Below the pieces are notes generated by a model that had not been told where the DNA came from, ran no database searches, and saw only the letters and a program-made list of their open reading frames with translations. Below are positions 4,426-60,310 of a stretch of 64,000 nt of DNA, in pieces (position 1 is the first letter of the stretch; every line of letters starts with the position of its first letter). A program made the translations under genes and the position numbers. The DNA comes from Chthoniobacteraceae bacterium (lineage in GTDB: Bacteria; Verrucomicrobiota; Verrucomicrobiia; Chthoniobacterales; Chthoniobacteraceae): positions 32,001 to 96,000 of the forward strand of contig JANNWY010000196.1 in the NCBI GenBank assembly GCA_031409335.1. The letters run 5' to 3'.

Positions 4426-5592
4426 GTGCTCGATAGAATTCATTACCGTGACCTGATTCGCCGCCGCCTCGCGGCCAATCCCGTCGTCTCCCTGCTCGGC
4501 CCGCGACAGGTCGGCAAGAGCACGCTGGCCAAGTTCATTACAGGAGAACATCCAGGCGCGCATTATTTCGACCTGGAAAATCCCGTGGATGTCTCGCGCC
4601 TCGCCGAACCGCAGACGGCGCTGGAGCCGCTCACGGGATTGGTGGTGATCGACGAAGTGCAGCGGCAGCCGGAGCTATTCAGTCTGCTGCGCGTGCTGGC
4701 CGATCGAGAACCGCTTCCCGCGCGCTTTCTCTTGCTCGGCAGCGCTTCGCCGACGCTTATTCGCGGCGTGTCCGAATCGCTCGCCGGGCGGCTCGGTTTT
4801 GTGGATCTGCATGGCTTCGATCTCACCGAAGTCGGCGCAGAAAAGTGGCGTGAACTCTGGTGGCGCGGCGGCTACCCACGCTCCTTCCTCGCGGCGGATG
4901 ATGGCACGGCGCGCGACTGGCAGGACGCGCTCATCCGCACCTTGCTGGAACGCGACTTGCCCGAGGCCGGAATTACGATTCCGGCGGCGACGTTGCGGCG
5001 CTTTTGGAGCATGGTCGCGCACTTTCACGGACAGACGTGGAACGCGGCGGAATTCGCGCGCTCCCTCGGCAGTGCGGAGACCACGGCGCGGCGCTATCTC
5101 GATATTCTCACGTCCATGTTTCTCGTCCGCCAGTTGCCGCCTTGGTTTGAAAATCTCGGCAAGCGGCAGGTGAAAGCGCCGAAGATTTATGTGCGCGACG
5201 CGGGCCTGCTGCACGCGCTACTCGGTGTGCCCACGGCGGGCGCACTCGGGGGGCATCCAAAGCTCGGTGCGTCGTGGGAGGGCTTCGTCGTCGAGCAAGT
5301 GGCGGCGCGGCTGGGCGAGCGAAATTTGTGGTTTTGGGGCACGCACGCTGGCGCGGAACTCGACATTTTTGCGCAAATCGCCGGAGAGCGGATCGGCATT
5401 GAGGTGAAACACGCCGACGCGCCGACGCTCACGAAATCCATGCACATTGCGCGGGCGGATTTGAAACTGGACCGACTGCTCATTGTCACGCCCGGCAGCC
5501 GTTCCTATCCCGTGTCCGACTGGGCGGAAGTCGTGGGCATTCCCGATTTGATGTTGCGCTTGGGGCAAATCAACCCGGAGCCGAAACGATGA
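4426..5592 (+). CDS. AAA_14 family ATPase with DUF4143 / PD-(D/E)xK-like C-terminus
   Basis: Walker A GPRQVGKS, Walker B VIDEVQ, LLGSAS, ESLAGR, GGYP, KIYVRDAGLLH and ELDIF...IGIEVK. Start at GTG 4426 is uncertain. Confidence 0.9.
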   Translation: MLDRIHYRDLIRRRLAANPVVSLLGPRQVGKSTLAKFITGEHPGAHYFDLENPVDVSRLAEPQTALEPLTGLVVIDEVQRQPELFSLLRVLADREPLPARFLLLGSASPTLIRGVSESLAGRLGFVDLHGFDLTEVGAEKWRELWWRGGYPRSFLAADDGTARDWQDALIRTLLERDLPEAGITIPAATLRRFWSMVAHFHGQTWNAAEFARSLGSAETTARRYLDILTSMFLVRQLPPWFENLGKRQVKAPKIYVRDAGLLHALLGVPTAGALGGHPKLGASWEGFVVEQVAARLGERNLWFWGTHAGAELDIFAQIAGERIGIEVKHADAPTLTKSMHIARADLKLDRLLIVTPGSRSYPVSDWAEVVGIPDLMLRLGQINPEPKR

Positions 5593-51090: not shown

Positions 51091-51134
51091 CGCCTTTGCA
51101 GATGACGAGTCGTGGATTCCATTTGCCAGCCGCC

Positions 51135-54100
51135 ATGAGATTTTCCGCCGTCGCATTCGCCATCACCGCTTTTTCGATCCCTGCTTTGCGCGCGGCGGAC
51201 GCGCCGGATTTCAATCGCGAGGTGCGGCCGATCCTCTCGAACTATTGCTTCAAATGCCACGGCCCGGATGACAAGACGCGGAAGGCAAAACTGCGGCTCG
51301 ATGTGCGCGACGAGGCGCTGAAGCCCGCGAAGTCCGGCGACCACGCGATCGTGCCGGGGAACGTCAATGAGAGCGAACTGGTGACGCGCATTTTTTCCAA
51401 GGACGAGGACGAGCTGATGCCGCCGCCCGCGACGAAAAAGGAGATGACCGACCAGCAGCGCGATGTGCTGAAACGCTGGATCGCATCGGGCGCGAAGTAT
51501 GATGCGCACTGGGCATTCCTCGCGCCGAAGCAGGCCGTGGCGATTGCGGATTGCGGATTGCGGATTGCGGATTGGGAAAAGCGCAACGCCGCTCGCGGGG
51601 CGGAACTCAGGCGGCAGCAGGTGGCGCTGGAAAAATGGCCGGAGAATCCCATCGACGAGTTCGTGCTCGATCGACTCTTGAGAGAAGGACTCACCCCTTC
51701 GCCGGACGCTGATCCGCACACGCTTTGCCGCCGGCTTTACCTCGACCTCACCGGACTGCCGCCGACACCGGAGGAGGCGCAGGCCTTTGTGGATGGGTCC
51801 CATAGGTCGAATGGGTCCCATACGACCTATGAGCAACTCGTGGACAAGCTGCTCGCCTCGCCAAAGTACGGCGAACGCTGGGCCCGCCGCTGGCTCGATC
51901 TCGCGCGCTACGCCGACACGAATGGCTACGAAAAAGATCGCAACCGCAGCATCTGGCCGTGGCGCGATTGGGTGATCAAGGCGCTGAATGCGGACATGCC
52001 GTTCGATCAATTCACGATCGAACAACTCGCGGGTGATCTGCTGCCAAATGCGACGCCCGATCAGATCGTCGCGACCGGCTTTCACCGGAACACGATGTTG
52101 AATGAAGAAGGAGGCATCGATCCGCTGGAGTTTCGTTTTCACGCGATGACCGATCGGATGGCGACGACGGGCGTGACGTGGATGGGCCTCACGGTCGGCT
52201 GCGCGCAGTGCCACACGCACAAGTTCGATCCGATCCAGCACCGCGAGTATTACCAGATGATGGCGTTCCTGAATAACGCCGACGAGCCGGAGTTCGATTT
52301 ACCCGATCCGACGGCGGCCGAGCGTGCAAAGAAGAATGCAGAGCGCGTGACGAAGCTGCTCACAGAACTGCCCGACAAGTGGCCGGTGGATGCGGGCGAC
52401 GCGCGCTGGGAGTCGCCGCGTCCGGTGGAGGTAAAGACGGAGTCGGGCGAAGTGCCGAAGCTGCTCGACGATAGTTCCGCGCTCTTCGCCGCGCCGGGGC
52501 CTGCCGCGGATGTCTGCACGTTTGTTTTTGAAACGGAGACGACCGGCATCGACCGCGTGAGGCTCGAAGCGCTGACCGATGATTCGCTGCCTGCGAAAGG
52601 GCCGGGCCGGGTCTCCCACGGAAACTTCGTGCTGACCGAAATCGTGGTGATGGCTGCACCAAAGTCGGCGCCCGAGAAGATGGAGCGCATGGCGATCGTA
52701 AGCGGGACGGCGGATGCGGAGCAGGACACTTTCCCGATCGGGAATGCCTTCGACGGAAACGATGCGACGGGTTGGGCCGTGCATGCGCCGGGCAAACCGC
52801 TGAATGCGCCGAAGACCGCGGTCTTCACCTTGAAGCAGCCAGTTGGATTTCCTGGCGGCACCCGGATCGTCGTGCGGCTCGAACAAAAGCACGGAGCCGC
52901 GCACACGATCGGGCGTCCGCGATTGAGCTTTGGCGCGCCCGCGGGCGAGCTGAAGCCGGTGACCGAGCGGCGGGGCGAGATCGTCGAGAAAAAATTTGCC
53001 GAATGGCTGGCGCGGGAGCGCTCCCGGACAGTCGCGTGGACGGTGCTCCGCCCTGTGGAGGCGAAATCGAATATGCCGCTGCTCACGTTGCAGCCCGATG
53101 GGTCGATTTTTGGAAGCGGCGACATCACGAAGGCGGACACCTACGATTTGAAATTCACGAACGTCCCGCGCGGCATCACCGCGATCCGACTGGAGGCGCT
53201 GCCCGATGAACGCCTGCCGAATCATGGACCGGGGATGACCTATTACGAAGGACCGAAGGGCGACTTTTTTCTCGGTGAATTCCAACTCAGCGCGGGCGGG
53301 CAGTCGGTGAAGTTCAGCAAAGCCACCGAGACATTTTCCAAGAACGCGATGGGTGGCACTCCAGCGCCGGCGGCGCTCGCCATCGACGGCGATCCGCAGA
53401 CCGGCTGGTCCACCGGCGGGCGCGAGGGGCAGGAAAGCGATGCCGTGTTCCGGCTCGCGGCACCGCTCGGCGAGGCGCGCGAGCTTTCGCTGAAGATGAT
53501 GTTCGGGCGCCACTACGCTTGTTCGCTCGGGCGCTTTCGGATTTCCGTCACCAACGATCCGCGGGAGATCGAGGCCCGCGAGATTCCGGATGAAATCGAG
53601 CGTCTGCTCGTGATTCCCGAGACCACGCTGACGAATGCCCAGCGCCAGGAACTGCGACAGCATTTTCTTCTCACCGCGCCAGAACTCGCCGCCGCACGTG
53701 CGGAGATCGACAACTTGCGCAAGGCCCCGTCTGCCTTCGCGTCGACTCTCGTTCTCCGCGAGCGCCCGCCGGAAAATCCGCGCCCGACCTTCATCCACAA
53801 TCGCGGCGAATTCCTGCAGCCGACGGATCGCGTCGAGCCGGGCGTTTTTGGGTTCCTTCCTGCGTTGCCGGACAAGGCTAAACCCGATCGTCTGGCCTTC
53901 GCGCGCTGGCTCGTGTCGCCGGAGAATCCGCTGACCGCGCGCGTCACCGTGAACCGCCAGTGGGCGATCCTGTTTGGGCGCGGGCTGGTGCGAACCACGG
54001 AGGATTTCGGGTATCAGGGCGAGTCGCCTTCGCATCCGGAATTGCTCGACTGGCTCGCGGTCGAATTCGTGAAGCAAGGCTGGTCGCTGAAAAAGCTGCA

Positions 54101-54803
54101 CCGTCTGATCGTAACCAGCGCGACCTACCGGCAGTCCTCGCGCGTGACGCCGAAATTGCTGGCGAAAGACGCCGAGAATAAATGGCTCGCCCGCGGACCC
54201 CGCGGACGGCTGGACGCCGAAGTCATTCGCGATTCCACGCTGCGCGCCGCCGGATTGCTCTCCGGAAAAATCGGCGGTCCGAGCGTCCGCCCGCCACAAC
54301 AGGAAGGCGTGAGCGAAGTCGCCTACGGCGGCGGAAGATGGGACGCGAGCGCGGGCGAAGATCGCTACCGCCGCGGGCTCTACACCTTCATCAAGCGCAC
54401 CGCCCCCTACGCGATGCTCACGACCTTCGACGCCCCGACCGGCGAAGCCTGCATCGCCCGCCGCGACGTTTCCAATTCCCCGCTGCAAGCCCTCACGCTA
54501 CTCAACGACATCGTCTTCATCGAAGCCGCGCAGGCGCTCGGGAAGACGCTCGCGAGCCAGCCCGGCAGCATCGACGAGCGCATCGCATCGCTCTTTCGCC
54601 AAGTCCTCACGCGCCCGCCGACCGCGGATGAAACGGCGCTGCTCGCCAAGTTTTTCGTGACGCAAAAAGCGCGCTTCGTTTCAAACGAACTCGATGCCAA
54701 AGCCATCGCCGGCGAAGGCACCGGCGACGTGAATGAACGCGCCGCGTGGACGGCGCTGGCGCGGGCGATTTTCAATCTGGATGAAGCGGTGACAAAAGAC
54801 TGA
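51135..54803 (+). CDS. Planctomycete cytochrome c / DUF1549 / DUF1553 (PSD1) protein
   Basis: Signal peptide, CFKCH and CAQCH heme motifs, NPIDEF, RRLYLDLTGLPPT, YGERWARRWLDLARYADT, PSHPELLDWLA, PLQALTLLND. Confidence 0.95.
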   Translation: MRFSAVAFAITAFSIPALRAADAPDFNREVRPILSNYCFKCHGPDDKTRKAKLRLDVRDEALKPAKSGDHAIVPGNVNESELVTRIFSKDEDELMPPPATKKEMTDQQRDVLKRWIASGAKYDAHWAFLAPKQAVAIADCGLRIADWEKRNAARGAELRRQQVALEKWPENPIDEFVLDRLLREGLTPSPDADPHTLCRRLYLDLTGLPPTPEEAQAFVDGSHRSNGSHTTYEQLVDKLLASPKYGERWARRWLDLARYADTNGYEKDRNRSIWPWRDWVIKALNADMPFDQFTIEQLAGDLLPNATPDQIVATGFHRNTMLNEEGGIDPLEFRFHAMTDRMATTGVTWMGLTVGCAQCHTHKFDPIQHREYYQMMAFLNNADEPEFDLPDPTAAERAKKNAERVTKLLTELPDKWPVDAGDARWESPRPVEVKTESGEVPKLLDDSSALFAAPGPAADVCTFVFETETTGIDRVRLEALTDDSLPAKGPGRVSHGNFVLTEIVVMAAPKSAPEKMERMAIVSGTADAEQDTFPIGNAFDGNDATGWAVHAPGKPLNAPKTAVFTLKQPVGFPGGTRIVVRLEQKHGAAHTIGRPRLSFGAPAGELKPVTERRGEIVEKKFAEWLARERSRTVAWTVLRPVEAKSNMPLLTLQPDGSIFGSGDITKADTYDLKFTNVPRGITAIRLEALPDERLPNHGPGMTYYEGPKGDFFLGEFQLSAGGQSVKFSKATETFSKNAMGGTPAPAALAIDGDPQTGWSTGGREGQESDAVFRLAAPLGEARELSLKMMFGRHYACSLGRFRISVTNDPREIEAREIPDEIERLLVIPETTLTNAQRQELRQHFLLTAPELAAARAEIDNLRKAPSAFASTLVLRERPPENPRPTFIHNRGEFLQPTDRVEPGVFGFLPALPDKAKPDRLAFARWLVSPENPLTARVTVNRQWAILFGRGLVRTTEDFGYQGESPSHPELLDWLAVEFVKQGWSLKKLHRLIVTSATYRQSSRVTPKLLAKDAENKWLARGPRGRLDAEVIRDSTLRAAGLLSGKIGGPSVRPPQQEGVSEVAYGGGRWDASAGEDRYRRGLYTFIKRTAPYAMLTTFDAPTGEACIARRDVSNSPLQALTLLNDIVFIEAAQALGKTLASQPGSIDERIASLFRQVLTRPPTADETALLAKFFVTQKARFVSNELDAKAIAGEGTGDVNERAAWTALARAIFNLDEAVTKD
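51544..51574. repeat. Heptamer array (TTGCGGA)x4 in frame within the PSD1 gene
   Basis: Four perfect units encoding IADCGLRIADW; same unit as at 25943-25970. Confidence 0.92.
51793..51830. repeat. Short palindromic repeat in frame within the PSD1 gene
   Basis: atgggtcccataggtcgaatgggtcccatacgacctat; ataggtcg pairs with cgacctat. Encodes GSHRSNGSHTTY. Confidence 0.7.
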
Positions 54804-54837
54804 CGGCGGGTCCTCCGCGGCTTTCGGCACGATGTGA

Positions 54838-54864
54838 AAGCGGTGAAGGAATCACCGCAGTCCA
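54838..54864. repeat. Single REP-like hairpin after the PSD1 gene
   Basis: aagcggtga-aggaa-tcaccgcagtcca. Confidence 0.4.
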
Positions 54865-54935
54865 GAGCCTTCGGCGGCACCGATATTTCCCGTCGCGCGC
54901 GCCGGATTCAAGGAAAGCTGGAAGTCGCGGTTTGA

Positions 54936-57008
54936 ATGTTGGACCCTCGCCAAATGCACGTGATCCCCACCTTTCTCAGACGGTTCATCAGCGCGGGACT
55001 CGCGCTCGCTTTTCCCGCGACCGGCGACGCCGGCGGCTCGCTCCCGGCTGGCTTCAGCGAATCCGTCTTGGTCTCCGGCCTCACTCAGCCGGTGAGCATC
55101 GCGTGGGCGCCGGATGGCAGCCAGCGGCTCTTCGTCACCGAGAAAGCTGGCGGCATTCGCGTGATCCGAAATGGCGCGCCGCTCGCGACCCCGTTCGCCA
55201 TTTTTCCTCAGCTCTACACGCAGAGCGAATGCGGCGTCCTCGGGCTGTGCTTCGATCCAAATTACGTCGCGAACCGCCACGTGTATGTCTTCGTCACGAT
55301 CTCCGCTTCGGAGCAGCGCATCGTGCGTTTCACCGATGTCGGAAACCGCGGCACCGAGCGCACGAATATCCTGACGGGCTTGCCGACGCTCGGCGTGAAC
55401 CACAACGGCGGCGCGCTGGGCTTTGGCCACGATGGAAAACTGTACTGGGCAATCGGCGACAACGGCGCGAAGCGCGGGGTCGATGGCGATCTGGCGAGCC
55501 TCGCGGCGAAAGTGGGGCGCGCGAATGCGGACGGCAGCGTGCCTTTGGGCAATCCCTTCGCCGACGGCTCCGGGCCGAATAACGACTACATTTGGGCGAC
55601 GGGTTTTCGCAATCCGTTCACGATGACTTTCCAGCCGCGCTCAGGAAAACTCTGGCTGAATGTGGTCGGGTCGAATGCCGAGGGACAGACCGTTCCGAAC
55701 AGCGGCCCTGGCTACGAGCAGATCTTCGCGCTCAATGCGGGCGAAGACGGCGGCTACGATGACTACGAGGGAAACCAGCCGAATGGCAGCCGCTACAACA
55801 CGCCCTTCGCGCGGCCCTTTGCGCATCCGGCTTTGCAGTATAGAACGAGGCCGTTGACCGGCGGCGCGGTGGGCGTGCAGACGCCTGTTCAGGTGCTCGG
55901 GATTTCGCGCTCGACCGGCGTGGATGTCGTTCTGACCGCCACGCCCCATCCGTATTTCACGGGAAACGTCGTGCGGATCACCGGCACAACCGACGCGACT
56001 TTCGACCGCACGTTCGTGGTTCGATCGGTGCCGAGTGCGACGACGTTCACCGCGTTCGATGCCGGAGCCGATGGCAGCGCGAGCGGCGGACAGGCGGCGG
56101 CGCTCTCCTTTGGCAGCAGCATCACGGGCGGCACATTTTATGACAGCAGCGCTTTCCCGGCTGGATCCCGAGGCAACTTTTTCTTCGGCGATTTCACCAG
56201 CGGCCTGCTGATCCGCGCGAAAGTCAATGAAAGGGGCAAAACCTCCGATGTTTCAGTCTTCAGCACGGGCCAGGGCTCGCCCGTCGATCTCGCGGTCGGG
56301 CCGGATGGCGCGCTTTACGTTGCCGACTTCGCCGCGGGAGCCATCCGCCGGATCGCGTGGACGCAAGCGCCCGCCGACCTCCTCGTCACGCCCACCGTTT
56401 TCAAAATGCGCGAAGGCGGACAAGCAAACTTCGCCGTGCGGCTCGGCAGCGCGCCGATCGTCCCGGTCGTCGTGACGACGCACGGCGCGTCGCAAAATCA
56501 AAACGCGGTCGTCACCGCGGGTGAAATGCTCACCTTCAACGCGACGAACTGGAACGTCCCGCAGCCCGTCACGATCGCCGCCGCCACCGACGCGGACGAC
56601 GATGACGAAAGCAGCGAGTTCGTTCTCACCGCGCCGGGACTCGCGGCGGAGACGGTGAGCGTGAGCATCACGGACACGAGCGCTGAAGCGCCGCTGCTTT
56701 CGGTGAATACTTTGACCATCAATGAAGGCAGCGGCGGCAATGTTTTTGTGAGCCTGCCGCAGCGACCCGCGGGCAATGTGACGCTCAGCGTGCGGCGCAC
56801 TTTGGGAATCGCCGCGCGCGTCGTCCACGGTGGGGCGCTCGTGTTCACTCCGGCAAATTTTGCGACGCCTCAGCGCGTTACGATTTACGCGAATCAGGAC
56901 GTGAATACGCGGGATGCGGTCGTGCGTTTCATCATCGGCGGCCGCGGCTACACGGCGCGCGGGATCACCGTCAACGCGCTCGACAACGATCCGCTGCGCG
57001 CGCCTTGA
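54936..57008 (+). CDS. PQQ-dependent sugar dehydrogenase (GSDH-like) with two C-terminal Calx-beta-like repeats
   Basis: GLTQPVSIAWAPDG, ECGVLGLCFDP, NHNGGALGFGHDGKLY, IWATGFRNPF, GPDGALYV; repeats LTFNATNWNVPQPVTI and LVFTPANFATPQRVTI. Start may be 54954. Confidence 0.88.
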   Translation: MLDPRQMHVIPTFLRRFISAGLALAFPATGDAGGSLPAGFSESVLVSGLTQPVSIAWAPDGSQRLFVTEKAGGIRVIRNGAPLATPFAIFPQLYTQSECGVLGLCFDPNYVANRHVYVFVTISASEQRIVRFTDVGNRGTERTNILTGLPTLGVNHNGGALGFGHDGKLYWAIGDNGAKRGVDGDLASLAAKVGRANADGSVPLGNPFADGSGPNNDYIWATGFRNPFTMTFQPRSGKLWLNVVGSNAEGQTVPNSGPGYEQIFALNAGEDGGYDDYEGNQPNGSRYNTPFARPFAHPALQYRTRPLTGGAVGVQTPVQVLGISRSTGVDVVLTATPHPYFTGNVVRITGTTDATFDRTFVVRSVPSATTFTAFDAGADGSASGGQAAALSFGSSITGGTFYDSSAFPAGSRGNFFFGDFTSGLLIRAKVNERGKTSDVSVFSTGQGSPVDLAVGPDGALYVADFAAGAIRRIAWTQAPADLLVTPTVFKMREGGQANFAVRLGSAPIVPVVVTTHGASQNQNAVVTAGEMLTFNATNWNVPQPVTIAAATDADDDDESSEFVLTAPGLAAETVSVSITDTSAEAPLLSVNTLTINEGSGGNVFVSLPQRPAGNVTLSVRRTLGIAARVVHGGALVFTPANFATPQRVTIYANQDVNTRDAVVRFIIGGRGYTARGITVNALDNDPLRAP

Positions 57009-57080
57009 TTCCGCAAGATTGCGCTTGTCGGCCCGATGTCCGCCCCTACTCTCCGCCGCAGTTCTTTGCGAGTCATAGTC

Positions 57081-57332
57081 AGTGAATGGATGAAAGGAAT
57101 TCCGTGAGAATCGGAAACAGTTGCGCTGCTGTAACTGGATACGACTTCCCAATGCCAATCTCTTAAAACCGATTCGTCGGTCGCGGAGGTGAAGGCGGGA
57201 AGGAGGTGTGTGGAGACCGGGTGACCGGGCTTCGCCGAATGCCAGAAGTCAGAACATTTCCACCGTTCACTCTCATTCGTCCCCGCGTGTGCGGGCAGGC
57301 GAAAAACCTTCTTCGCAAGAAAGAAGAATGAG
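57081..57332 (+). promoter_or_regulatory. Cobalamin (B12) riboswitch
   Basis: Core aaaggaa-ttccg-tgagaat-cggaa-a-cag-ttgcg-ctg-ctgtaa; ctgg/ccag and cttccc/gggaag stems; B12-box-like gccagaagtcagaacatttcc; P1 agtgaatgg (57081-57089) / ccgttcact (57263-57271). Loop ttgcg (57121-57125) is complementary to cgcaa (57314-57318) in the loop of hairpin cttctt/aagaag, the L5-L13 kissing loop. Confidence 0.88.
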
Positions 57333-57408
57333 GGCACCACATCGCTCGCCGCGCGGCATTCGCCGTCGCGTCGTGGGTTGGTCTCTCCATCACAAACAAG
57401 AGACATCC

Positions 57409-58211: not shown

Positions 58212-59489
58212 ATGAAAGCCACCCCGCTCCATCTGCTGGCGCCCGCCGTGATGTTTTTTCACGGCGGGCTGCTCGCGGGTCCGTACTCCGCGGGCCTGAA
58301 CGATCCGGCGAACGCGAGTGATGCGCCGGTGCCGGGATTTGTGGGGCTCGACGGGATCGGCGGCGTGCCGTTTGAGGACGAATTTGGCGAGCCCATCAAT
58401 GCGCGAAACTATGTGAATCCGCTTTTTTTTGGCTGGGCGTCCTCGTTTTCCGGGTACTCGCGCCCGGCCGACGTAAGCCAATTTTGGGGCAATGCGGGAA
58501 AATCACTCGGGCCGGTGACGGGCAACAATATCCACATCGTTTCCCTCGGCGATCTGAGCGCCGCGCAGATCGGCGGCGGCGCGCTGCCGGGCTCGATCAC
58601 GCTGCATTTTGCGAATCCGATTCGCAATCTGACCGGCGCGGATTTTACCGTTTTTGAAAATGCGCTGATCGAGATCGGCAGCGGGATTTTCGGTGAACTC
58701 GGATACGTCGAGGCGTCGAGCGACGGCGTGAATTTCGTCCGCTTTCCCTCGGCCTCGCTCACCGCGGCCGCAGTCGGCGCGTATGGCACGTTTGATCCGA
58801 CGGATGTCTTCAATCTCGCTGGTAAACATGTGAACGGGGACGGCGATTCGTGGGGCACGCCGTTCGATCTCACGGCGGTCGGGCTCGCGAGCGCGAGTCA
58901 CATTCGCATCGTGGATATTCCGGGTAGCGGCGCGTTTCGCGACAGCGCGAACCGCCCGATTTACGATGCGTGGGTGACGTTCGGCTCGGGCGGCTTCGAT
59001 CTGGAAGCGGTCGGCGCGATTTCGCGCGCGATCGCGTTCGATCAATGGCAAACCGTGCGCGGACTCGTCGGCGCGCAGCGCGGTGCGGCCGTGGATTTGG
59101 ACCGGGACGGTGTTCCGAATTTCCTCGAATACGCCTTCGCGCGACTACCCGATCGCGTGGACGAAACTCCGACTCCCACGACCACGGAAATCGCCGCCGG
59201 GCGACTCGTGATCACCTTTACCCGCGATGAACGCGCGTCCGATCTCGTGTATGAAGTGCAGGCCGCGAACGATCTCGCCGCAAACGCGTGGACAACGATC
59301 GCGCAAAGCACGGCAGGCGCGCCGACCGTGGCTGCGGGCGCGTTCACGCCGGCGATCACCGAGACGAGTGCGAGCGCGATCGCGAGCGTCGGCGTGCTGC
59401 GCAAAGTGCGCGTCGCGGATGTGCAGACCGTGGCCGGAAATGCGCGTCGCTTTTTACGCATCAAAGTGACAAGCATCCCGGTGCCATGA
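58212..59489 (+). CDS. Exported cell-surface protein, BtuH-like domain plus verrucomicrobial C-terminal domain
   Basis: Signal-like N-terminus; IVSLGD...GSITLHFANPIRNLTGADFTVFENA...ELGYVEASSDG...GTPFDL...HIRIVDIPG...GFDLEAVG; then DLDRDGVPNFLEYAF...RRFLRIKVT. Confidence 0.75.
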   Translation: MKATPLHLLAPAVMFFHGGLLAGPYSAGLNDPANASDAPVPGFVGLDGIGGVPFEDEFGEPINARNYVNPLFFGWASSFSGYSRPADVSQFWGNAGKSLGPVTGNNIHIVSLGDLSAAQIGGGALPGSITLHFANPIRNLTGADFTVFENALIEIGSGIFGELGYVEASSDGVNFVRFPSASLTAAAVGAYGTFDPTDVFNLAGKHVNGDGDSWGTPFDLTAVGLASASHIRIVDIPGSGAFRDSANRPIYDAWVTFGSGGFDLEAVGAISRAIAFDQWQTVRGLVGAQRGAAVDLDRDGVPNFLEYAFARLPDRVDETPTPTTTEIAAGRLVITFTRDERASDLVYEVQAANDLAANAWTTIAQSTAGAPTVAAGAFTPAITETSASAIASVGVLRKVRVADVQTVAGNARRFLRIKVTSIPVP

Positions 59490-60310
59490 GCGCGCGCGCA
59501 CAACGGAGATCAGCACAGCCACGAATCGGTGCGTTCACGTTGGTCGAGTTGCTCGTGGTGATTGGTCTCATCGCGGTGCTGGCCGCGGTGCTCCTGCCTA
59601 TCCTTCATGCCGCAAAGGTGAGTTCGTACGCGGCGCGCAGCACGAACAGCCTGCGTCAACTCGTGGCCGCAAACATCACGTATTCCGCGGAGAAAGGCTT
59701 CTACGTTCCCGCGGACAACCGCCGGAACAATCGGCGCTGGCACGGTGGCCGCACTTCGCCGAAAGAGCCATTCGATCCGGCGCGGGGATTCCTCGCGGAG
59801 TATCTGGGAAAATCGCGCGCGGTCACGCCGGACCCCTTTTTCAGCGACATGCTGAAGGACGGAAAGACCTTCGAGGAAGGCACGGGTGGCTATGGCTACA
59901 ACGCGTCTTACGTCGGCGGCACTCCCGAGTGGGGGTGGAATCCGGACGGGACAAGGCAATCCGCCGTGCCCGCGGCGATCGAGCGTCCGGCGACGACGAT
60001 GATGTTTGCGACTTCCGCCTATGCGCGTGAAAACGGCGTGCAGGAGTATCCCTACGCCGAGCCGCCGTTCTGGGATTTCGGCGACGGCCCGGTCGCGCAT
60101 CGCCCGTCGCCGACAGTCCACTTTCGCTACAACGGGCGGGCGCTCGTCGGCTGGTGCGACGGCCATGTGAGTTCCGAAGAAAGAGTCGTGCGCGCGGACG
60201 GCGAAAATCCACACTCGGGAAATGCGGAGGCGCAGAATCTCGGGTGGTTCGGCTCGGACGAGGAGAACGGCTTTTGGAATCCGCGCCGAGTCGGCCCCAG
60301 GGGGCGCTGA
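59486..60310 (+). CDS. Type IV prepilin-like protein with N-methylation motif and H-X9-DG-type C-terminus (DUF1559-like)
   Basis: GAFTLVELLVVIGLIAVLAAVLLP, STNSLRQL, GYGYN, C-terminal HFRYNGRALVGWCDGHV. ATGA-coupled to the upstream gene. Confidence 0.9.
   Translation: MSARAQRRSAQPRIGAFTLVELLVVIGLIAVLAAVLLPILHAAKVSSYAARSTNSLRQLVAANITYSAEKGFYVPADNRRNNRRWHGGRTSPKEPFDPARGFLAEYLGKSRAVTPDPFFSDMLKDGKTFEEGTGGYGYNASYVGGTPEWGWNPDGTRQSAVPAAIERPATTMMFATSAYARENGVQEYPYAEPPFWDFGDGPVAHRPSPTVHFRYNGRALVGWCDGHVSSEERVVRADGENPHSGNAEAQNLGWFGSDEENGFWNPRRVGPRGR

Follow-up and report, generated by a model that had tools for sequence, protein, structure and literature searches.

The stretch of DNA analysed here, called the window, spans 64,000 nucleotides (nt) of a Chthoniobacteraceae contig (JANNWY010000196.1, positions 32,001 to 96,000) and carries a cobalamin riboswitch followed by three genes, the last of which encodes the pilin-like protein P0001. 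P0001 belongs to a prepilin subfamily whose genes lie mostly behind such riboswitches, and this subfamily very probably has some role in vitamin B12 acquisition. Across relatives the pilin occupies the slot of the usual B12 receptor, which makes it a likely means of B12 entry, by a pilus-based route not described so far. On the pattern of competence pili, P0001 may be a minor pilin that captures B12 and belongs to a shared retractile filament, in place of BtuB, a reading that we regard as about evenly balanced. The sequence-only reading of this DNA had suggested, from co-regulation by B12, a substrate-specific subunit on a shared apparatus. The present analysis goes beyond it in that the neighbouring genes are of the BtuJ and BtuH types and the pilin is in the place of BtuB.

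Linkage of the pilin subfamily to cobalamin riboswitches

A subfamily profile built from 40 close homologues was searched against 401 genomes of the phylum and has 148 matches in 111 of them. The source genome of the window (G000; 7.9 Mb, 98% complete) is one of the 111, and RF00174 was sought in the other 110 with a search that scores only about 35 candidates per genome. With the source genome included, 67 of the 101 RF00174 matches are followed, on the same strand and at no more than 6 kb, by a subfamily gene. Counted from the genes, 68 of the 148 have RF00174 upstream. Many real riboswitches were lost at the Rfam gathering level, among them short variants of 23-31 bits and AdoCbl-II elements of 32.5 and 35 bits, and a riboswitch core model was therefore trained on 52 Rfam hits and the window aptamer. 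It was run on the DNA surrounding 104 of the 148 matches, namely those with the higher scores, from 90 genomes. A riboswitch core lies upstream in 78 of these 104 loci, 20 of the 78 being outside the training set, and 74 of the 90 genomes have at least one linked copy. The model finds no core in shuffled DNA and none in 20 control loci holding 24 other H-X9-DG pilins of genomes G006 and G118; these control loci have less upstream DNA (about 1-2.5 kb), but in the same two genomes no more than 210 nt separates the linked copies from their riboswitch.

The clade as such goes with the riboswitch, a check proposed by the sequence-only reading. The 113 subfamily sequences fall on one side of a branch and 32 control pilins on the other, with moderate support (84 in FastTree with 145 sequences, 87 in IQ-TREE with a 44-sequence subset); the sequences were chosen by similarity, and the riboswitch link was no part of the choice. 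More distant H-X9-DG pilins, at 50-79 bits on the subfamily profile, end riboswitch-led operons of secreted proteins in L212, L213, L214, L217 and L219-L224.

The 26 unlinked loci comprise 5 that are cut by contig ends, 7 with a palindrome and 14 others, which are weighed below. Among 10 named loci, one has RF00174 and three have an AdoCbl-II-like element, the rest being incomplete stretches. Two of the elements score just under the gathering level (35 bits in L010, 32.5 bits in L006), and that in L007 was recognized by sequence likeness. One pilin subfamily is thus found with three riboswitch forms: long RF00174, the short 23-31-bit variant (L076, L081 and other loci of family f23) and AdoCbl-II.

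In the seven palindrome loci (L043, L044, L047, L048, L051, L052 and L053, from families f19, f12 and f10), a protein regulator may have replaced the riboswitch, judging from the sequence before the first gene. The palindrome, TG[AG]CA-N6-TG[CT]CA, is present in all 7 and in 2 of the 97 other loci, where about 1.6 are expected by chance; half of the palindrome looks like a -35 box, which accounts for part of the match. Three of the seven loci have a divergent Fur-family gene. Genome G246 has a second site (L244:1501-1519) before another BtuH-like gene. Single sites precede genes that we take to be gcvH-like (L241) and purH-like (L240), possibly by chance.

The loci have two architectures. In the operon type (27 loci), the riboswitch is followed by secreted proteins and then the pilin. 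A BtuH-like domain is encoded upstream of the pilin in 31 of the 40 loci L042-L081 (14 of the 31 were in the BtuH-like profile), DUF4465 is present in 13 of these loci, and CobT and CobS follow in L042. The pilin-first type (51 loci, mostly of families f23 and f30) has no gene between riboswitch and pilin, and no BtuH-like gene was found in any of L102-L161. A BtuF-like PF01497 gene comes directly after the pilin in 19 of the 39 downstream open reading frames (ORFs) scanned (58 were called), and also in L081. In one branch (L138, L141, L143, L149, L152, L157, L159 and L161), an ORF of 133-145 amino acids (aa) with a hydrophobic N-terminus and no Pfam match follows the pilin in the BtuF position. 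A gene for a DUF6580 membrane protein (L003:4577-5158) is divergent from the riboswitch operon; a homologue lies elsewhere in the source genome (L235:3405-3989, contig C37), where no riboswitch was found.

These architectures bear on two other explanations. P0001 is the last gene of its operon, 2.2 kb from the riboswitch, and its co-transcription is only presumed, as would suit a gene that merely closes a B12 operon as a passenger. The 51 pilin-first loci show that the pilin is no passenger; it is also linked through at least three regulator types while control pilins are unlinked, and the explanation is hardly credible. P0001 might otherwise be a type II secretion pseudopilin that serves as an adaptor to export or display the neighbouring B12 binders, with no role in import. 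Its translational coupling to gene 2, the frequent BtuH-like gene upstream and its weak matches to GspG and GspH models would suit such an adaptor. The pilin-first loci, the lack of BtuH-like genes in L102-L161, and BtuH-like genes without a pilin in the surrounding DNA examined (L215, L244) do not, and we consider an export adaptor distinctly unlikely.

The operon and its predicted B12-binding proteins

The sequence-only reading had placed a B12 riboswitch upstream of the pilin gene, and the Rfam search agrees (Table 1). The aptamer is the sole RF00174 match in the window and in the whole source genome, as well as the only site above 14 bits there with the core model. It lies 5' of the genes on the same strand and ends 128 nt before the start of gene 1. 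Within the putative expression platform, the hairpin 57381-57404 covers the likely ribosome-binding site of gene 1 and is present in both the minimum free energy and the centroid folds. The loop side of another hairpin, 57309-57328, is complementary by eye to the aptamer L5 loop (57121-57125) and could form a kissing loop with it; such kissing loops were counted in 53 of 89 cases, a number that has no control set and is not used as evidence. The three genes form a tight unit in which the start of gene 3 overlaps the stop of gene 2 (ATGA), and the gene after P0001 is on the opposite strand. No sigma-70 promoter and no plus-strand terminator were detected within 56.9-60.5 kb.

Table 1. Features of the operon in the window and AdoCbl-II-like elements of related loci
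Feature	Position	Strand	Basis or description
Cobalamin riboswitch aptamer	57070..57281	+	Rfam RF00174, 43.6 bits against a gathering level of 31.5, E 1.2e-7
Putative expression platform	57307..57404	+	Sequence reading and RNA folding
Gene 1, P0002, 266 aa	57409..58209	+	DUF4465/BtuJ
Gene 2, P0003, 425 aa	58212..59489	+	Secreted; N-terminal domain predicted BtuH-like
Gene 3, P0001, 274 aa	59486..60310	+	Prepilin of the B12-linked H-X9-DG subfamily
Class III signal of P0001	59486..59602	+	Sequence: basic leader, predicted cleavage between Ala16 and Phe17, Glu+5, hydrophobic helix
His212-Phe-Arg-Tyr215...Asp-Gly-His227 of P0001	60119..60166	+	Subfamily His212 and family motif with Tyr for His
AdoCbl-II-like element	L006:1911-1984
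AdoCbl-II-like element	L010:5450-5523
AdoCbl-II-like element	L007 about 5300-5380

P0002 has a signal-like N-terminus, a DUF4465/BtuJ domain (PF14717, E 2e-49, 168.7 bits) and a PEP-CTERM anchor (TIGR02595, above cut-off). Its closest match in the PDB is 9HMU (D5EK51; E 3e-27), which binds B12 according to the available text of PMC13398666. The same text defines the NTPAY motif of the BtuJ HI loop, with its B12-contacting tyrosine, and P0002 holds this motif as NTPAYF. TonB and ABC transporters are given there as BtuJ neighbours, and that part of the paper does not mention pilins.

P0003 has no Pfam or NCBIfam match, and sequence and alignment searches of the PDB gave nothing meaningful; its likeness to BtuH comes from the fold search only. 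The AlphaFold model has a mean predicted local distance difference test (pLDDT) score of 88.8. The top structural match of its N-terminal domain is BtuH2 (7BIZ; Z 12.9, root-mean-square deviation (rmsd) 2.7, 157 aligned residues) and the second is BtuG1 (8BLW_B, which carries a BtuH domain; Z 12.2). Carbohydrate-binding modules, the CBM32-like background, reach a Z of at most 9.7, about 3 below the BtuH matches. The N-terminal domain is thus predicted from the model to fold like BtuH, which binds B12 directly (PMC8941943). The source genome has at least 24 other ORFs, mostly large and many of them for secreted proteins, that end in the C-terminal domain (about residues 276-425, window 59037-59489). 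This domain may serve in sorting or anchoring; some homologues have PEP-CTERM in its place.

With a BtuJ-type gene 1 and a BtuH-like gene 2, the operon therefore corresponds to the Btu accessory kit of Bacteroides, without BtuB and BtuG and with a pilin. The cobamide loci of Bacteroides thetaiotaomicron (BtuB with BtuG, BtuH and BtuJ; BtuFCD; PMC8941943, PMC13398666) share with it the riboswitch leader, DUF4465/BtuJ, the predicted BtuH fold and, in relatives, BtuF. Unlike those loci, the operon has a pilin-like gene instead of BtuB and BtuG; these were looked for, and no receptor and no propeller were found among the three genes. The binders also differ in their anchors, which are PEP-CTERM or a Verrucomicrobial C-terminal domain here and lipoprotein anchors in B. 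thetaiotaomicron.

The claim that no pilus assembly genes are nearby stands for the 50-64 kb stretch of the window, where no pilus genes were found. A contig-wide motif scan gave no motif of an assembly ATPase, and its one further prepilin-like frame lies beyond the window. Upstream of the operon (51096-57008) lie genes for a Planctomycete-type cytochrome c protein (DUF1549/DUF1553) and a glucose/sorbosone dehydrogenase-like protein. In the other loci read, the operon has no such neighbours.

Fold and conserved residues of P0001

P0001 has the class III signal that was claimed for it. GA|FTLVELLVVI is at residues 15-25 and scores 22.0 bits on PF07963, just above the cut-off of 21.2, and Glu+5 is kept in all 113 subfamily sequences. 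The C-terminal motif RYNGRALVGWCDGHV spans residues 214-228 and ends in WCDGHV, with Asp225, Gly226 and His227 present. Membership in the H-X9-DG family holds as to the prepilin N-terminus and the Asp-Gly-His hairpin, but not as to the motif His or a strict model match. P0001 is matched by neither TIGR04294 (cut-off 19 bits) nor DUF1559 (PF07596, no hit at E 0.01), although one relative scores 25.2 bits on TIGR04294. The head had been described as aromatic-rich, but its Phe, Trp and Tyr content of 13.6% is ordinary (12.7% in the subfamily, 13.0% in control pilins).

The statement that PVC (Planctomycetes, Verrucomicrobia and Chlamydiae) genomes carry many such paralogues is borne out in G006 and G118, with 26 and 15 TIGR04294 matches, but the source genome has few: of 27 prepilin-motif ORFs only 2 have a DGH tail, and TIGR04294 has 2 matches, P0001 not being among them. 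PMC10632474 gives the function of the H-X9-DG (TIGR04294)/DUF1559 family of PVC bacteria as unknown and counts 68 paralogues in Planctopirus. P0001 shares with this family the prepilin helix, the C-terminal Asp-Gly-His hairpin and common descent. It differs in lacking the His, in matching neither model and in belonging to a conserved low-copy subfamily tied to B12 regulation.

The model of P0001 (pLDDT 81.9) has a 52-residue helix (19-70) and a loop-rich head with a sheet formed by residues 136-138, 172-176 and 218-233. This is the pilin architecture of a helix packed on a beta-sheet head. All of the top 20 structural matches are pilins or pseudopilins; the best is modest (Z 6.1, rmsd 3.3, 122 aligned residues). 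Foldseek gave no match at E 0.001, and an Atlas search returned only unnamed clusters for P0001 and P0003.

A pilin fold also fits an adhesin that is repressed by B12 and holds the cell to B12-producing partners or particles while the vitamin enters otherwise. A type IV-like pilus, MUL2, has been proposed for attachment in Akkermansiaceae (PMC13174399). The tight linkage to BtuF and to the BtuB slot speaks against an adhesin, and the head is conserved over gut, sediment and water lineages, which would be unusual for a partner-specific adhesin; we consider this role quite improbable.

Residues kept in the subfamily and not in the controls are Asn63, Gly87, GGYGYN at 134-139, Phe174, His212-Phe213-Arg214 and Gly253, while Trp85 is conserved in both. 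His212 is present in 93% of the subfamily sequences and is not among the top residues of the control pilins. The sequence-only reading was right that Tyr replaces the usual His: position 215 has the family His in 93 of the 113 subfamily sequences and in 78% of the 32 controls, and is Tyr in P0001. All 20 sequences without His215 also have Ser for Cys52 and lack Asp176, which suggests from the alignment that Cys52, Asp176 and His215 form one site. The 20 sequences make up the branch of P0001 itself, so that the loss was probably one event. Tyr215 had been considered as a B12-specific feature and was rejected in view of this lineage-wide loss together with Cys52 and Asp176. Since B12 control persists in the branch, the family His is unlikely to be a cobalt ligand, and His212 would be the better candidate.

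P0001 might instead supply B12 synthesis with cobalt by capturing the ion, which His212 could bind. Transporters of cobalt, too, are under the control of cobalamin riboswitches. In some carriers (L089) a riboswitch leads genes for cobalt chelatase and B12 synthesis, and a Fur-family gene flanks three of the riboswitch-less loci. Against cobalt capture, the source genome has no hit for CbiK, CobT or CobS and could not use free cobalt for B12, and the neighbouring genes are of cobamide-binder types; it appears very improbable.

In a few longer proteins (P0129, P0141, P0144, P0165, P0169, P0170 and P0202), the pilin stands behind a PEP-CTERM, dockerin-like or TSP3 region. Such 'fused' pilin proteins probably reflect read-through of coupled genes.

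TonB receptors and a possible import route for B12

The TonB receptor family PF00593 was sought in 80 of the positive genomes and is present in 32, with none in the 37 of family f23. Among the 63 genomes with an Rfam-linked pilin copy, 38 have no PF00593 receptor. These counts are given without a P-value because related genomes are not independent. The near-complete genomes G006 and G274 lack a TonB receptor; their secretin matches number 11 and 14, and they also show several PilT ATPases along with B12-binding domains. The receptor-less f23 genomes would suit a general replacement of TonB import by type IV filaments.

Genomes without the subfamily show what otherwise fills this slot. RF00174 was found in 40 of the 80 subfamily-negative genomes scanned (290 are negative), and the 30 best loci, taking the best per genome, were read. 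In 13 of these 30, a TonB receptor gene comes first behind the riboswitch. In L215, a PEP-CTERM protein, a TonB receptor and a BtuH-like protein follow the riboswitch, with no pilin in 8 kb. Behind four of the riboswitches is a more distant pilin, with 50-70 bits on the subfamily profile where controls reach at most 35. The remaining ones lead to NrdD, NrdB, MetE, CobT, HlyD or a contig end.

The source genome encodes MetH, a short MetE-like protein and a DUF6580 protein, and tblastn gave no hit in it for CbiK, CobT, CobS or BtuF. With MetH present and no hit for CbiK, CobT or CobS, it therefore needs imported B12. It has seven PF00593 matches, all on other contigs than the operon and none riboswitch-led; these receptors are closest to heme, zinc or siderophore models. 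The proposal of a shared type II/IV apparatus holds to the extent that the genome does encode a type IV machine, with 7 secretins, 7 PilT-family ATPases and a prepilin peptidase, all of it unlinked to the operon. A secretin, a retraction ATPase and a prepilin peptidase are present in all five genomes tested.

Several observations weigh against a B12-capturing pilin. In structure searches, none of the known B12-binding folds was recovered for the head of P0001. The operon has no linked assembly gene. Fourteen of the 104 loci have no detectable regulator though upstream DNA is present, several of them being second copies. TonB receptors that might carry B12 are found in 25 of the 63 linked genomes and in the source genome itself, where one of them could still be a B12 carrier. 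Receptor-less genomes are close kin (37 are of one family), which implies few independent events. Genomes G269 and G359 have both a pilin operon and a riboswitch-led TonB receptor, so that strict exclusion between pilin and BtuB, which had been considered, was rejected. Lastly, Gly, Ala or Ser precedes Phe+1 in only 20 of the 71 pilin-first sequences, control paralogues having a similar spread, whereas Gly or Ala is found there in 41 of the 42 operon-type sequences.

The non-standard residue before Phe+1 in most pilin-first sequences (51 of 71) makes standard cleavage doubtful there. Together with the BtuF-like gene directly downstream in many of the loci and the lack of linked assembly genes, it would suit a P0001 that is anchored in the inner membrane, relays B12 through the periplasm to BtuF and never enters a filament. 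Such a relay leaves the outer-membrane step unexplained in the 38 genomes without a TonB receptor, and it sits poorly with the invariant Glu+5 and with the regular Gly or Ala of the operon type. We consider it unlikely.

A capture pilin on a retractile filament could work as follows. Low B12 likely switches the operon on, the direction being deduced from the riboswitch sequence. P0002 and P0003 likely concentrate cobamide at the surface, as the literature on other members of their families would suggest. P0001 would be processed by the prepilin peptidase of the genome and built into one of the type IV filaments encoded away from the operon. Cobamide would reach the head either without a go-between or by way of the BtuH-like partner, with Asn63, Trp85, GGYGYN and His212-Phe-Arg as candidate capture residues, and retraction through the secretin would bring it to the periplasm. 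BtuF with BtuCD, or the DUF6580 protein, might then move cobamide across the inner membrane.

Competence type IV pili use a substrate-binding minor pilin, such as ComP of Neisseria. P0001 shares with the competence pili of Neisseria and Vibrio the class III signal, the pilin fold (Z 4.8 against ComP 5HZ7) and a secretin and PilT in the genome. The bind-retract-import logic proposed here for P0001 would be a further likeness to competence pili (PMC7545093, PMC6370729). Unlike theirs, the cargo of P0001 would be a small cofactor and not DNA; its head is larger and loop-rich, it is under the control of a metabolite riboswitch and it has no linked assembly genes. The MUL2 locus of Akkermansia (PMC13174399), a member of this phylum, likewise connects nutrient acquisition with a pilin-like system. 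It differs in its pilin class, its glycan substrate, its own PilM-like assembly gene and the lack of a riboswitch.

In a broader reading, which we put at somewhat below even, a small cofactor enters through the secretin on a retractile type IV filament whose B12-specific tip is P0001, and this import replaces TonB transport. The H-X9-DG/DUF1559 families would then be a library of substrate-specific tips, filling the role that SusC/D and TonB receptors have elsewhere, and in one lineage a Fur-family protein would have taken over from the riboswitch.

Outer-membrane bacteria are thought to need BtuB and TonB for B12 uptake, yet many of the outer-membrane genomes studied here have no TonB receptor and have a pilin behind a B12 switch. 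A search of the open-access literature, supplements excluded, found no paper linking H-X9-DG, DUF1559 or pilins to B12. The locus is a variant of a B12-scavenging system, and the import route that it implies would be new in kind. It also adds a link to two types of surface B12 binder and a possible protein regulator in place of the riboswitch. A family of unknown function, with dozens of copies in PVC genomes, gains a named candidate ligand, a set of conserved residues and a simple growth assay. If the reading is true, nutrients can be imported by a type IV filament, which suggests how the receptor-less Verrucomicrobiota of the gut and the environment may feed.

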